The notes: a model not told the origin generated them from the sequence alone. A DNA stretch of 64,000 nt from an uncultured Candidatus Rokubacteria bacterium (GCA_963765195.1 CAVXVV010000088.1:358529-422528); one strand, 5' to 3'; counted from the first letter of the stretch, positions 39,237-47,903 are shown. Numbers and translations are program-made.

Positions 39237-39590
39237 GTGGGCGTGCAGCGCGGCACCGGCCTCGTCGACTTGCTCGACCGGGTCCTCGACAAAGGCCTGC
39301 TGATCGCAGGCGACATCCGGATCTCTCTGGCGGAGGTCGAGCTTCTGACCATCCGCATCCGGCTGATCGTGTGCTCGATCGACAAGGCTCAGGAGATCGG
39401 GCTCGACTGGTGGAAGTACGACCGGAACCTGGCGCCCGGAGCCCGCGTCGCCGCGGTGGAAACGGAGGCCCTGCGGCGCCAGGTGCGGCTCCTCGAACGC
39501 CGGATCGCCGCGCTCTCGGCCCGCCAGGCGCCCCGCCGGCGCCGGGCGCCGCGCAGACGGACGGCTCCCACGGCTTCCACTGGAGGATGA
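39237..39590 (+). CDS. gvpJ: gas vesicle protein, GvpA-fold paralog (GvpJ/GvpM-like)
   Basis: GTG start is uncertain. [51 protein letters not shown] matches the GvpA/J/M core (L.D.LDR.LDKG..I.....+SL.G+ELL.I..R+V+AS+D...). It continues into a long basic, Ala-rich C-terminal tail. Confidence 0.7.
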   Translation: MGVQRGTGLVDLLDRVLDKGLLIAGDIRISLAEVELLTIRIRLIVCSIDKAQEIGLDWWKYDRNLAPGARVAAVETEALRRQVRLLERRIAALSARQAPRRRRAPRRRTAPTASTGG

Positions 39591-39593
39591 CCG

Positions 39594-39929
39594 ATGCCCA
39601 TTGAGCGAACGACTGGCGGCACCAGTCTCATCGATGTCCTCGACCGGGTCCTGGACAAGGGCATCGTCATCGACGCCTGGGTGCGCGTGTCCCTCGTCGG
39701 AATCGACCTGATCACCGTCGAGGCGCGCGTCGTCGTGGCCTCGATCGACACCTACCTCAAGTACTCGGAGTCGATCTCCCAGGTCTCGCCGGTGTCGCGG
39801 CCCGCCGCGGTGGCGAGCCAGGAGGCCGTGCTCGCCGAGAACGCCGCGCTCCGGGCGCAGCTCGCCGCCACCCCCTCCGGCTCCACGCGGCGCGGCCGCA
39901 CGCGGCGGCGGACCGCCAAGTCGGCCTAG
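39594..39929 (+). CDS. gvpA: gas vesicle structural protein
   Basis: [59 protein letters not shown] is near-identical to the canonical GvpA core. It has an unusually long C-terminal extension. Confidence 0.9.
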
Positions 39930-39932
39930 GGC

Positions 39933-45816: not shown

Positions 45817-46649
45817 CCCCTGCGCGCCAGGCCTCGCCGGGATCGCGTCGGCGCGTGGCGCCGCGGCAGTCAGCCACCTACGTCTACTGCGTCGCGCGCG
45901 CCGCCCGGGCGCCGTCGCTCGGGAGCGCGCCGGCGGGACTCCCCGGCACGGGCCGGCCGCGAGCCCTTCCGGCCGGCCAGGGGCTCTGGCTCATCGTCGC
46001 CGACGCCCCGCTCCCGCAGTACGGCGAGGCGGGGCTGGCGCGGGTCGTGCGCGACCTGGACGCGGTGTCACGCTGCGCGGTCGCGCACTCGGCGGTCATC
46101 GCGCACTGCGCGCGGCGGACCCCGGTGCTGCCGCTGCGGCTCCTCACCCTCTTCTCGAGCGACGAGCGCGCGCTCGCCCGGGTGCGCGGCCGGCGCGCCG
46201 CCATCGCGCGGCGGCTCGACCGTCTGGCGGGCCGAGCGGAGTGGGGCGTCCAGGCGCGGCTTGCCGCCGGCGGCGGCCCCACGGCCCGGCGCGCCCAGGC
46301 GACCGCCCGGCGCGAGACCGCCCGCCTCGGCCCCGGGACCCGCTTCCTCGAGCTCCGCCGGCGCCAGCGCGAGACGGCGCGCGACCTGGCCAGCGGCGCG
46401 AAGGCCGCCGCGGCCGCGCTCTACCGCACGCTGGCCCGGCACGCCGACGCGGCCCGCCAGCGTCCGCCGGTCTCGATGGACGGGCGCGCCGCCCTCCTCC
46501 TCGACGCCGCGTTCCTCGTGCCCGCGGCAAGCGCCGTGCAGTTCCGGCAGGCCGTGCGGGCCCAGACGGCGCGCGCCGCGGATCGCGGCCTCCAGATCCG
46601 GCTGACGGGCCCATGGCCGCCCTACAGCTTCGTCGCCGGCCGACTCTGA
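45813..46649 (+). CDS. gvpL: gas vesicle protein GvpF/GvpL family (second paralog)
   Basis: TYVYCVARAARAPSLG..., LWLIVADAP, VLPLRLLTLFSSDERA, and a C-terminal LTGPWPPYSFVAG follow the GvpF/L pattern. GTG start overlaps the ArsA-like stop. Confidence 0.75.
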   Translation: MTPARQASPGSRRRVAPRQSATYVYCVARAARAPSLGSAPAGLPGTGRPRALPAGQGLWLIVADAPLPQYGEAGLARVVRDLDAVSRCAVAHSAVIAHCARRTPVLPLRLLTLFSSDERALARVRGRRAAIARRLDRLAGRAEWGVQARLAAGGGPTARRAQATARRETARLGPGTRFLELRRRQRETARDLASGAKAAAAALYRTLARHADAARQRPPVSMDGRAALLLDAAFLVPAASAVQFRQAVRAQTARAADRGLQIRLTGPWPPYSFVAGRL

Positions 46650-46861
46650 GCCCGCGCCGGGCCGCGCGGCGGACCCGCAGGACGCGGCCGCCGGATCAGG
46701 ACGCGTCGCTCCTCGACATCGTCGACCACGTCCTCACGAAGGGGGTGGTCGTGTCCGGGGATGTCGTGCTCGCTCTGGCGGACGTCGATCTCGTCTACCT
46801 GCGCCTGTCGGCCCTCCTGTGCGCGGCCGACCGGCTCACGCCGCGAAAGCGCCGGACGTGA
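46613..46861 (+). CDS. gas vesicle protein, GvpA-fold paralog (GvpJ/GvpM/GvpS-like)
   Basis: ATG at 46613 overlaps the 3' end of the preceding gene. A basic N-terminal tail is followed by SLLDIVDHVLTKGVVVSGDVVLALADVDLVYLRLSALLCAADRL, which is the GvpA-family core. Confidence 0.6.
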   Translation: MAALQLRRRPTLSPRRAARRTRRTRPPDQDASLLDIVDHVLTKGVVVSGDVVLALADVDLVYLRLSALLCAADRLTPRKRRT

Positions 46862-47550
46862 GCGTCCTCTATCTCTACGCTCTCGTCGGAGAGCCGCCCC
46901 GGCGCGCCCTGGGACTCGGGCTCCGCCGGGAACGGCTGACAACGCTCCCCGGCCGGGGCTTCCACGTGGTCGTGGGCCGGATGGACGAGGCCCCGGCAGC
47001 GGACGCCGCCGCCCTCCGCGGCCACGACGCCGCCGTCCGCCGCATCGCGGCCACGGTGGACGCGATCCTGCCGATGCGCTTCGGTTCCGTCGCGCCCGAC
47101 GAGGAGACGGCGGGGCGCCTGTTCGCGCCGCGGGCCATCGAGCTGGCGGGGCGGCTGGTCCACGTGCGCGGGCACGCGCAGATGACGCTGCGGGTCTACG
47201 GCCCGCGCCGGACGGCCCGATCGCGGCCCCCGGCCCCGGGCTCGGCGACGACGGCGCGGCTCGGCCCGGGGGCGCGATACCTCGCCGAGCGGCGACAGCT
47301 CCATGGCGCCGCGACGGCGCCCGAGCTCGATCCGATCCGCCCGCTGCTCGACGGCCTGGTCGCCGACGAGCGCGTCCAGCGCCACCTCACCCCGCCGCTC
47401 CTCGCCAGTGTCTACCACCTGGTCCCGCGGGACCGCGGGGCGCGCTACCGGGCGCGGGTGGCGCGCGGCGCCCGCCAGCTGTCGCCGCTGCGCGTGACCG
47501 TGAGCGGCCCGTGGCCACCCTACGCGTTCGGAGCCGACACGTGGCCGTGA
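46858..47550 (+). CDS. gas vesicle protein GvpF/GvpL family (third paralog)
   Basis: GTG overlaps the previous stop as GTGA. SVLYLYALVGEPP, GFHVVVGRMDEAP, ILPMRFGSV and a C-terminal VSGPWPPYAF follow the GvpF/L pattern. Confidence 0.75.
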   Translation: MSVLYLYALVGEPPRRALGLGLRRERLTTLPGRGFHVVVGRMDEAPAADAAALRGHDAAVRRIAATVDAILPMRFGSVAPDEETAGRLFAPRAIELAGRLVHVRGHAQMTLRVYGPRRTARSRPPAPGSATTARLGPGARYLAERRQLHGAATAPELDPIRPLLDGLVADERVQRHLTPPLLASVYHLVPRDRGARYRARVARGARQLSPLRVTVSGPWPPYAFGADTWP

Positions 47551-47903
47551 AGCGGCGCCGGATGAGCGTGAAAGCCGTCCGCGCGAAAGAGCTGCGGGCG
47601 CTCCGCGTCGAGCTCCGGCAGCGCCCGCGAGGCCAGGGCCCCGCTCGATGGAACGCCAACCCCGACGACGTGCAGCGGTCGCTGGCGCAGCTGGTGCTGA
47701 CGCTCGTGGATTTCCTCCGCCAGCTCCTCGAGCGTCAGGCGATCCGGCGCCTCGAGGAAGGCACCCTCACGCCCGCCGAGACCGAGGCCATCGGACTCGC
47801 GCTCCAGCGGCTCGAGCGAGCGATTCGCGACCTGGCGCGCCGGTTCGGGCTCACGCCGGACGACCTCCGGCTCGATCTCGGGCCGCTCGGGCGCTTGACC
47901 TAG
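47547..47903 (+). CDS. gvpK: gas vesicle protein GvpK
   Basis: DDVQRSLAQLVLTLVDFLRQLLERQAIRRLEEGTLTPAETEAIGLALQRLERAIRDL matches the GvpK consensus (GLA.LVLTL.E.LR.L.E.QAIRR...G.LT.EEIE.LG..L..LE). Start is GTG at 47547 or ATG at 47562. Confidence 0.8.
   Translation: MKRRRMSVKAVRAKELRALRVELRQRPRGQGPARWNANPDDVQRSLAQLVLTLVDFLRQLLERQAIRRLEEGTLTPAETEAIGLALQRLERAIRDLARRFGLTPDDLRLDLGPLGRLT

Follow-up and report, generated by a model that had tools for sequence, protein, structure and literature searches.

A 64,000-nucleotide stretch of DNA from an uncultured Candidatus Rokubacteria bacterium (GCA_963765195.1, CAVXVV010000088.1:358529-422528), analysed over its full length and referred to here as the window, was found to carry a compact gas vesicle (gvp) operon. 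The operon consists of 11 tightly packed genes, all on the + strand (39237-47903), each of which has a Pfam identity. The gene order is J-A-HK-RR-F-G-ArsA-F-S-F-K, where HK stands for a histidine kinase, RR for a response regulator and ArsA for an ArsA/Get3-like ATPase. This arrangement is designated class I, and the cassette has a size of 8.7 kb. We infer that the region probably holds a gvp operon of a distinct class that is functional and has been maintained by vertical descent. A preliminary description of the same sequence had pointed to a gas vesicle cluster of unusual composition; its observation was confirmed, and its interpretation was supported in part. The ten genes it had counted are indeed co-directional, and its coordinates and gene list were right, but the number of genes is 11.

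Gene content of the operon

Genes were called from third-position GC (the window has about 70% G+C) and then subjected to profile searches (Pfam, NCBIfam). Adjacent genes overlap by 1-43 nt or are separated by gaps of 3-11 nt, with the exception of a 70-nt gap before the ATPase gene. The GvpJ-like protein, GvpA, three GvpF/L proteins, GvpG, a second GvpA-fold paralogue and GvpK, all of them named in the preliminary description, were found by Pfam at the positions given in Table 1. The accessory proteins of the GvpF/L, GvpG, GvpJ/M/S and GvpK types scored above the Pfam gathering thresholds and are encoded in one co-directional operon with gvpA.

The product of the gene starting at 39594 is the true GvpA, because it passed the NCBIfam model NF006874 (108.9 bits vs a cutoff of 100) and has the conserved core. 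Compared with GvpA of other organisms, this core shows 64% identity for Octadecabacter and 62.5% for Halobacterium. The canonical core is followed by a C-terminal extension of about 45 residues, which might be a stand-in for the absent GvpC. The GvpJ-like protein shows 46% identity to GvpJ of Streptomyces and 42% identity to a J-like protein of Octadecabacter. The first GvpF/L protein carries a Lys/Ala/Pro-rich N-terminal tail of 70 residues (42531-42740) and is about 37% identical to Octadecabacter GvpF (37.6%, the best GvpF match among plasmids). In GvpG, the first 50 residues are 88-100% identical among the Rokubacteria loci. The second GvpF/L paralogue is 32% identical to Streptomyces GvpL, and the GvpS/M-like protein is 45% identical to Streptomyces GvpS; the nearest NCBIfam model to the latter was halo GvpM, with a score below the cutoff. 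The third GvpF/L paralogue matches the Octadecabacter GvpL/F gene located between S and K (27%, E 1.5e-10), and no counterpart of it was detected at E ≤ 1e-3 within the Streptomyces cluster.

Arginine-rich tails were observed on most of the small Gvp proteins: GvpA (39800-39929), the J-like protein (39480-39590, ...RRRRAPRRR...), GvpG (43640-43741) and the N-terminus of the S-like protein (46613-46700). The GvpA extension also contains a short coiled-coil-like stretch. Across the half of the operon that runs from the ATPase gene to gvpK (44000-48000), the G+C content climbs from about 70% to 77%, and Ala, Arg and Pro abound in the encoded proteins. A scan for consensus sigma-70 promoters and terminators gave nothing useful within the operon, which is consistent with a single transcription unit and is not evidence for one. 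Rfam gave no match in the window.

Table 1. Genes of the gas vesicle operon and adjoining elements (positions counted from the first letter of the window)
Feature	Positions	Strand	Profile match or remark
GvpJ-like minor GvpA-fold protein, 117 aa, Arg-rich C-terminal tail	39237-39590	+	PF00741, 4.5e-16
GvpA major shell protein, 111 aa	39594-39929	+	PF00741, 9e-17
PAS-HisKA-HATPase histidine kinase, 713 aa	39933-42074	+	Pfam
Receiver-only (CheY-like) response regulator, 150 aa	42074-42526	+	PF00072, 6e-27
GvpF-type GvpF/L, 319 aa	42531-43490	+	PF06386, 2e-75
GvpG, 84 aa, hydrophobic N-terminal helix	43487-43741	+	PF05120, 1.4e-8, above cutoff
Tandem (pseudo-dimeric) ArsA/Get3-family ATPase, 667 aa once repaired	43812-45816	+	PF02374, both pieces
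GvpL-like GvpF/L paralogue 2, 278 aa; start overlaps ATPase stop	45813-46649	+	PF06386, 7e-47
GvpS/GvpM-like small GvpA-fold protein, ~82 aa	~46613-46861	+	PF00741, 9e-13
GvpF/L paralogue 3, 243 aa	46819-47550	+	PF06386, 1e-30
GvpK, 113 aa, last gene of the operon	47562-47903	+	PF05121, 3e-31
MEDS-domain sensory protein, convergent to gvpK	47947-49059	-	PF14417, 1.6e-23
Sigma-54-type promoter-like motif GGGCACGTCCATTGCA	38834-38849	+	~390 nt upstream of the first gvp gene
Sigma-70-like block TTGCGA-18 nt-TATGCT, most conserved upstream block	39071-39104	+	invariant columns, five upstream regions aligned

The absence of GvpN, GvpO and GvpC, stated in the preliminary description, was verified for the window and for ten other cassette loci with 10 kb flanks. 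In the window, Pfam was run on the gene calls supported by third-position GC and on the leftover open reading frames (ORFs) of doubtful stretches, while a few short stretches were covered by tblastn only. Query sequences of GvpN, GvpO, GvpC, GvpH and Hsp20 were taken from the annotated clusters of Octadecabacter pOA238_160 and Halobacterium pNRC100. Neither Pfam nor six-frame tblastn revealed GvpN, GvpO, GvpC or Hsp20 across the 64 kb. The ten fetched loci of the same order likewise gave none of the four up to 10 kb from the cassette; they comprise six of the Rokubacteria/Methylomirabilota type, one Polyangia metagenome-assembled genome (MAG), one Vicinamibacteria MAG and two unassigned loci. 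As a positive control, the two GvpN queries detected each other at E = 1e-59, across domains of life, and the two GvpO queries at 1e-10. GvpC is poorly conserved, yet each ORF of the cassette is otherwise assigned. The preliminary description had named a canonical gvpN or gvpO elsewhere on the contig or in the operon context as an observation that would contradict it; none was found in the window by Pfam and tblastn. Two candidates for GvpN were rejected. The best tblastn match (55367-55471, 36 residues, E = 0.02) lies in overlapping ORFs without a Pfam match, and the sole AAA_5 match (21216-22580) is part of a Sigma54_activat domain.

Conservation of the cassette and of its ATPase

An identical gene order, with 67-97% protein identity, was found in four species-representative MAGs (Candidatus Methylomirabilota or Rokubacteria) and two ENA contigs. 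These Rokubacteria-type loci (designated L001-L005 and L012) also share their flanks, with a Pup ligase gene upstream and MEDS, MlaC and DPBB genes downstream. The common order and flanks indicate that the window stems from a Rokubacteria-type genome and that the cluster was vertically inherited in this group. With unrelated flanks, the cassette recurs in one MAG each of Polyangia and Vicinamibacteria and in two other contigs (L008-L011), and its order is also seen in many soil contigs. The ratio of nonsynonymous to synonymous substitution rates (dN/dS, Nei-Gojobori) was 0.02-0.51 for all 11 genes when compared with the closer relatives L001 and L003-L005, and 0.09-0.59 when compared with the loci of other phyla or without assignment (L008-L010). 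Against the Rokubacteria-type relatives, the values were 0.03-0.25 for the GvpJ-like gene and 0.12-0.18 for gvpK. Judged by these ratios, each gene, including those of the kinase, the regulator and the ATPase, is under purifying selection. A cluster whose gvp genes were broken throughout, which the preliminary description had regarded as damaging to its proposal, is not what was found: all 11 genes gave dN/dS ratios well below 1.

In order to place the cassette among related clusters, a set of 80 metagenomic loci with tandem ArsA-like ATPases, 27-59% identical to that of the window, was surveyed, and gvp genes, GvpN, GvpO and Hsp20 were mapped. Linkage to gvp genes was observed in 63 of the 80; GvpN was present in 13 and GvpO in five. 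The class I order, J-A-HK-RR-F-G-X-F-J/S-F-K (X being the ATPase), is complete in three of them (L015, L018 and L057); about 30 of the 80 contain fragments that fit this order, with an ATPase identity to the query of at least 41%. No GvpN, GvpO or Hsp20 was found in the surveyed class I loci, even with flanks of 7-10 kb. In the classes that contain GvpN, this gene lies only 1.6-8.5 kb from the ATPase gene, so that it would have shown up in loci with flanks of this length. Class Ib is a permuted form without GvpN, F-G-X-F-(J)-F-K-J-A-HK. Class II has the order A-N-F-(G)-X-J-K-J, with GvpN 1.6-2.4 kb from the ATPase gene, and class III is Octadecabacter-like and combines GvpN, Hsp20, GvpO and the ATPase. 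The slot between gvpA and gvpF is occupied by gvpN in class II and by the kinase and regulator genes in class I.

In a rough neighbour-joining tree, the ATPases were grouped by cluster class. Those of class I came together in one clade, whose sister group is class Ib; the N-linked ATPases and those without linkage to gvp genes stood apart from it. The tree and the survey indicate that several types of gvp cluster have long contained the ArsA-like ATPase, which has diversified with them and is not a chance insertion. One tandem ArsA-like ATPase (L020, Ga0209515_10005990), which branches at the base of the class I clade and shares 47% identity with the query, is without gvp genes over 5-8 kb; the gvp-linked ATPase therefore has close relatives outside gvp clusters as well.

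As assembled, the ATPase gene of the window is divided into two ORFs in different frames (43812-45314 and 45271-45816). The removal of one base near 45297 (gcg-g-acg) yields a protein of 667 residues. Intact homologues, with 97% and 85% identity, also have 667 residues and read ...ALFPPAAAATRHDLVVVDTAPTGHT across the break site. In a 98%-identical entry (P0093) the ATPase frame is broken elsewhere, and in the related contig L001 it is the kinase gene that is split. The frameshift at 45297 is probably an assembly indel error and not decay, because the homologues are intact at the same length and the breaks of P0093 and L001 fall at other places. Titles and contig names suggest long-read assemblies as the source of the related MAGs.

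The repaired protein belongs to the Get3/ArsA/TRC40 family, since it passed the TIGR00345 model (326.7 bits vs a cutoff of 135), and it failed the ArsA equivalog model TIGR04291 (188.6 bits vs a cutoff of 650). Both halves display the deviant Walker A motif GKGGVGKTT, the switch I motif STDPAHSLGD and the switch II motif DTAPTGHTLRLL, and the corresponding columns are invariant or nearly so among 42 homologues. Like Get3/TRC40 and Chlamydomonas ArsA1, the protein is of the SIMIBI class, with the deviant Walker A and a DTAPTGHT switch II in each half; with ArsA1 it also shares the tandem, pseudo-dimeric build. In contrast to the setting of Get3, a gas vesicle contains neither a lipid membrane nor a Get1/2-like receptor. 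The metalloid-binding residues of E. coli ArsA, Cys113, Cys172 and Cys422, align to residues other than Cys (alignment to 1f48), and Pfam scans of the window revealed no arsB, acr3, arsD or arsR. The best sequence match among solved structures was the tandem Chlamydomonas ArsA1 (PDB 5zme, 3.8e-51), followed by archaeal TRC40. The AlphaFold (AF2) model of the 97%-identical protein P0001 has a predicted local distance difference test score (pLDDT) of 82 and a predicted template modelling score (pTM) of 0.85. Its fold is a tandem duplicated P-loop ATPase that matches the ArsA structures 1f48 and 9nbo; in a Foldseek search the best matches were closed ArsA, ArsA1 and Get3, and the probability was 1.00 to Get3, TRC40, ArsA1 and ArsA. 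The consensus of the gvp-linked family has one CxxC motif per half, at positions that match the CxxC of archaeal TRC40 in the alignment.

The start and stop of the ATPase gene overlap the adjacent gvpG and gvpF/L genes in L008 and L010. Thousands of relatives of the ATPase exist in the databases, the named ones being from Methylomirabilota, Vicinamibacteria and Polyangia MAGs. The 120 matches listed were metagenomic or MAG sequences only, and no search was aimed at cultured hosts. An exact-sequence look-up of the 500-residue ATPase ORF of the window gave no match, and neither did a tblastn search of the ATPase against plasmids at 1e-20.

Regulatory elements and neighbouring genes

The kinase is composed of an N-terminal domain, two PAS domains, HisKA and HATPase_c, and its H-box (SHDVRTPL) is intact. 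Since no membrane segment is evident, it is probably cytoplasmic. Its position is constant in all cassette loci, with 52-84% identity. The start codon of the response regulator gene overlaps the stop of the kinase gene, and the regulator is likewise conserved within the cassette. The regulator has no output domain, and its NCBIfam matches are restricted to the receiver. Lacking a DNA-binding output domain, it must act via a partner.

A GGCAY-N5-TTGCW motif was found 217-389 nt upstream of the gvpJ-like gene in all six Rokubacteria-type loci, in poorly conserved surroundings, and it was not found upstream of the class I cassettes from other phyla. Transcription in the Rokubacteria lineage probably also uses a sigma-54-type promoter, for which this motif is a candidate only. 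The sigma-70-like block at 39071-39104 was not called by the consensus promoter scanner and is a candidate promoter. The preliminary description had drawn attention to a sigma-54 NtrC-type regulator in the same organism. It does exist (21216-22580, - strand), but at a distance of 17 kb from the cluster and paired with a kinase of its own, and the cassette contains no NtrC-type gene. This regulator is a possible activator of the gvp operon. GvrA of Serratia is a sigma-54 activator of the NtrC type; the sigma-54-like promoter in Rokubacteria would be a parallel to it.

Over the whole window, 30 TGGCAC-N5-TTGCW motifs with up to two mismatches were counted. The expected number was 13.8 ± 3.5, and a count of 30 was not reached in any of 100 shuffles. 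Sites were located, for example, at 21198-21213 (-), 34380-34395 (+), 51797-51812 (+), 15413-15428 (+), 24194-24209 (+) and 38834-38849 (+). Many of the motifs lie just upstream of gene starts, those of stress-type genes included, which suggests that the organism may have a large sigma-54 regulon. In several Rokubacteria loci, a conserved Shine-Dalgarno-like GAGAGGTGG, with an ATG after it, was seen just downstream of the sigma-54-like motif (38881-39007). A small ORF following this motif in the window (ATG at 38897, 36 codons) was dropped, as its sequence is not conserved.

The MEDS gene adjoins gvpK in L001-L005 and L012 and is absent in L008-L011, and it is probably outside the cassette. 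It overlaps an ORF for 155 aa (48753-49220) that is likewise conserved. A Pup-ligase family gene stands beside the cluster in all Rokubacteria loci (35550-36941, - strand, in the window), and a Ku gene is found nearby in L001 (844-1710). Pupylation genes, MlaC and sigma-54 in one organism point to an unusual gene mix of the phylum. A second protein-shelled compartment is encoded 7 kb upstream of the gvp operon by an encapsulin shell gene (31427-32407, + strand, Linocin_M18, 2e-56). Trehalose and glycogen genes, namely an alpha-amylase family gene, GDE and a debranching enzyme, occur at 993-4960 and 25629-31162 (+ strand), and a TreY-like maltooligosyl-trehalose synthase was read by eye in the window, without a profile search. 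In the unrelated contig L010, OtsA, OtsB and TreT follow directly downstream of the cassette (13549-18756). The cassette may be linked to desiccation or osmotic stress.

Proposed mechanism, alternatives and known systems

As in characterised systems, GvpA would build a gas-permeable shell, nucleated by the J/S, F/L, G and K proteins. By the ATP-driven closing of its two halves, the Get3-like ATPase could hold a hydrophobic Gvp client that is prone to aggregation, and then pass it on; GvpA-family proteins or the hydrophobic helix of GvpG are the candidates. In this way the ATPase would drive the energy-dependent step, at least in part. The PAS domains of the kinase would sense an intracellular cue, leading to phosphorylation of the CheY-like regulator; having no DNA-binding domain, this would work by way of a protein partner. 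A sigma-54-type promoter would probably also be used for transcription in the Rokubacteria lineage. Taken to its conclusion, this scheme holds that a Get3-type ATPase, and not GvpN, powers the delivery of GvpA-family proteins to the shell, and that the kinase and regulator, on an intracellular cue, gate assembly or expression in a self-contained, signal-controlled, GvpN-independent module. We offer this furthest reading tentatively, as a possibility of limited weight.

Several observations weigh against the main explanation, that of a functional class I system working as outlined. The ATPase gene is frameshifted in the assembled sequence. Both CxxC motifs are lost in the ATPase of the window and in the Rokubacteria proteins. 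Whereas Get3 has Met-rich helices for client binding, those of the putative client-binding region of the ATPase are amphipathic and charged. The Get3-like holdase model comes from family membership and gene context, not from a groove shown to exist. ArsA-like ATPases stand beside GvpN in the 13 loci of classes II and III, and the ATPase may be an accessory rather than the energy source. We know of no ArsA-like gene in the Anabaena flos-aquae set formed by gvpA and gvpNJKFGWV. The search for GvpN reaches 64 kb of the source genome, and a gvpN elsewhere is possible. Gas vesicles in Rokubacteria or Methylomirabilota are not reported in the searchable literature. The literature searched names no conditions for vesicle formation by the GvpN-less cluster of the soil actinomycete Streptomyces coelicolor (PMC4982088). 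The preliminary description had placed the two-component pair and the ArsA-like ATPase in the cluster "instead" of GvpN, GvpO and GvpC. Both are present, but since the ATPase co-exists with GvpN elsewhere, a one-for-one replacement cannot be assumed and was not established. Its wider suggestion, that the assembly factors differ from the characterised ones, is plausible.

The cluster could also be an ordinary gas vesicle system that relies on a GvpN, perhaps also a GvpO, encoded elsewhere, with a separate, accessory role for the ATPase. The adjacency of ArsA-like ATPases and GvpN in the 13 surveyed loci and in published clusters (PMC2963123) argues for distinct roles of the two ATPases, and the visible part of the genome amounts to 64 kb. 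However, the cassette occurs with unrelated flanks across phyla, never with GvpN within 7-10 kb, although in all surveyed loci that contain GvpN it lies no more than 8.5 kb from the ATPase gene; moreover, the class II slot of gvpN is filled by the kinase and regulator genes in class I. We regard this explanation as unlikely. Slightly more doubtful is that no buoyancy organelle is made, and that the Gvp proteins are stress-related (desiccation or osmotic), as suggested for soil actinomycetes, or form tiny bicones only. The hosts belong to soil lineages, stress and dormancy genes (trehalose synthesis, BON-domain and YflT-like proteins, encapsulin and Pup ligase) are found nearby, and trehalose genes also flank the L010 cassette. 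In the same direction point the lack of identified vesicle conditions for the N-less S. coelicolor cluster and the arrest of Serratia gvpN mutants at small bicones (PMC4982088). Against it, the GvpA core is conserved as in the proven vesicle formers Halobacterium and Octadecabacter (62-64%), and purifying selection maintains all members of the nucleation set (F/L, G, J, K and S).

That the operon is a decaying relic with an ATPase pseudogene would account for the frame broken at about 45297-45314. It is very improbable, as a single extra base is involved, the 97% and 85% homologues are intact at the repaired length of 667 residues, the breaks in P0093 and in the L001 kinase resemble assembly indel errors, and dN/dS is well below 1 throughout. 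An arsenic-resistance gene inserted by chance is hardly credible at all. Databases do label the homologues as "arsenite-transporting ATPase", and the top Foldseek matches were ArsA structures. Nevertheless, the equivalents of Cys113, Cys172 and Cys422 are not Cys, the ArsA equivalog model failed, arsB, acr3, arsD and arsR are absent nearby, the position in the cassette is fixed across phyla and the ATPase phylogeny tracks the cluster class. Both readings were rejected on the basis of dN/dS, the intact homologues and the cysteine evidence.

Single features of the cluster have precedents. Two-domain ArsA homologues within the gvp clusters of four phyla were described in 2010 by Castillo and Saier (PMC2963123), and the interpretation in the preliminary description is only partly new. 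These authors proposed that the ArsA homologues energise a step of biogenesis distinct from that of GvpN. Most of their ArsA-gvp clusters (Polaribacter, Pelodictyon, Geobacter, Nostoc/Anabaena) contain gvpN, while for an acidobacterial cluster ArsA, two L/F genes, J, K and M are listed and gvpN is not (PMC2963123). As in the Rokubacteria cassette, the homologue has about 640-670 residues, is located inside the gvp operon without arsR or arsB and lacks the arsenite cysteines of ArsA. An embedded kinase/regulator pair is not mentioned there, nor is the fixed J-A-HK-RR-F-G-X-F-S-F-K order with its spread over Methylomirabilota, Myxococcota and Acidobacteriota defined. Precedents for a kinase/regulator inside a gvp cluster and for a gvpN-less cluster are found in Tashiro et al. 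2016 (PMC4982088), where S. coelicolor has a gvp cluster without gvpN. According to that article, the Serratia cluster contains gvrB and gvrC, and its gvpN mutants arrest at small bicones. Serratia sp. ATCC 39006 resembles the cassette in having regulatory genes inside the cluster (gvrA, gvrB and gvrC), which are needed for expression (PMC4982088). Unlike the cassette, it has GvpN, GvpC, GvpV and two operons. The Anabaena flos-aquae set of gvpA and gvpNJKFGWV has been used in mammalian cells (PMC10344784).

The actinomycete order O-A-F-G-J-L-S-K was verified on a plasmid of Streptomyces sp. NBC_00984 (L013), whose annotation shows no gvpN. Counterparts of J, A, F, L, S and K, 31-53% identical, are present in it. 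The cassette shares with this type the absence of GvpN and GvpC, the A-F-G...L-S...K backbone, a GvpA longer than the canonical one of about 70 residues and a soil host. It differs in that the Streptomyces cluster starts with GvpO (E = 1e-15), absent from the Rokubacteria cassette, and has no ArsA-like ATPase, kinase/regulator or third GvpF/L; J follows G in Streptomyces and precedes A in the cassette, which has three foreign genes inserted and an extra GvpF/L. The actinomycete-type order seen in the preliminary description thus applies to the backbone, whereas the third GvpF/L between S and K fits the Octadecabacter order better. In Octadecabacter arcticus pOA238_160 (L006) the order is A...N-Hsp20-F-G-O-J-L-F/L-S-F/L-K. 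The ...F/L-S-F/L-K tail, with the extra GvpF/L between S and K, is common to both clusters, but L006 has GvpN, Hsp20 and GvpO and lacks the ArsA-like ATPase and the kinase/regulator.

Searches of the literature gave nothing relevant on gas vesicles in connection with either Rokubacteria or Get3; for Methylomirabilota, or for Acidobacteria in soil, they gave little. No description of the fixed J-A-HK-RR-F-G-ArsA-F-S-F-K cassette was found. Each oddity by itself has a precedent. What appears to be undescribed is a cassette fixed as one unit across phyla, and its occurrence in Rokubacteria. The analysis extends gvp clusters to Rokubacteria/Methylomirabilota, for which no earlier report was found. 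If the cassette needs an unlinked GvpN, or never forms vesicles, the finding would shrink to a catalogue entry.

Gas vesicles serve as ultrasound reporters that can be genetically encoded, and the cassette is a possible new part for engineering. A cross-phylum cassette in which a Get3-like ATPase is constant and GvpN, GvpO and GvpC are missing is a natural experiment on the minimal machinery of shell assembly, its ATP-dependent step included, and it bears on the old question of why non-aquatic soil bacteria retain gvp genes. If the Get3 reading is true, a tail-anchor-targeting machine would have been repurposed for a membrane-less, gas-filled organelle. The main value of the finding is this testable idea of a Get3-like machine that may serve a protein-shelled organelle.

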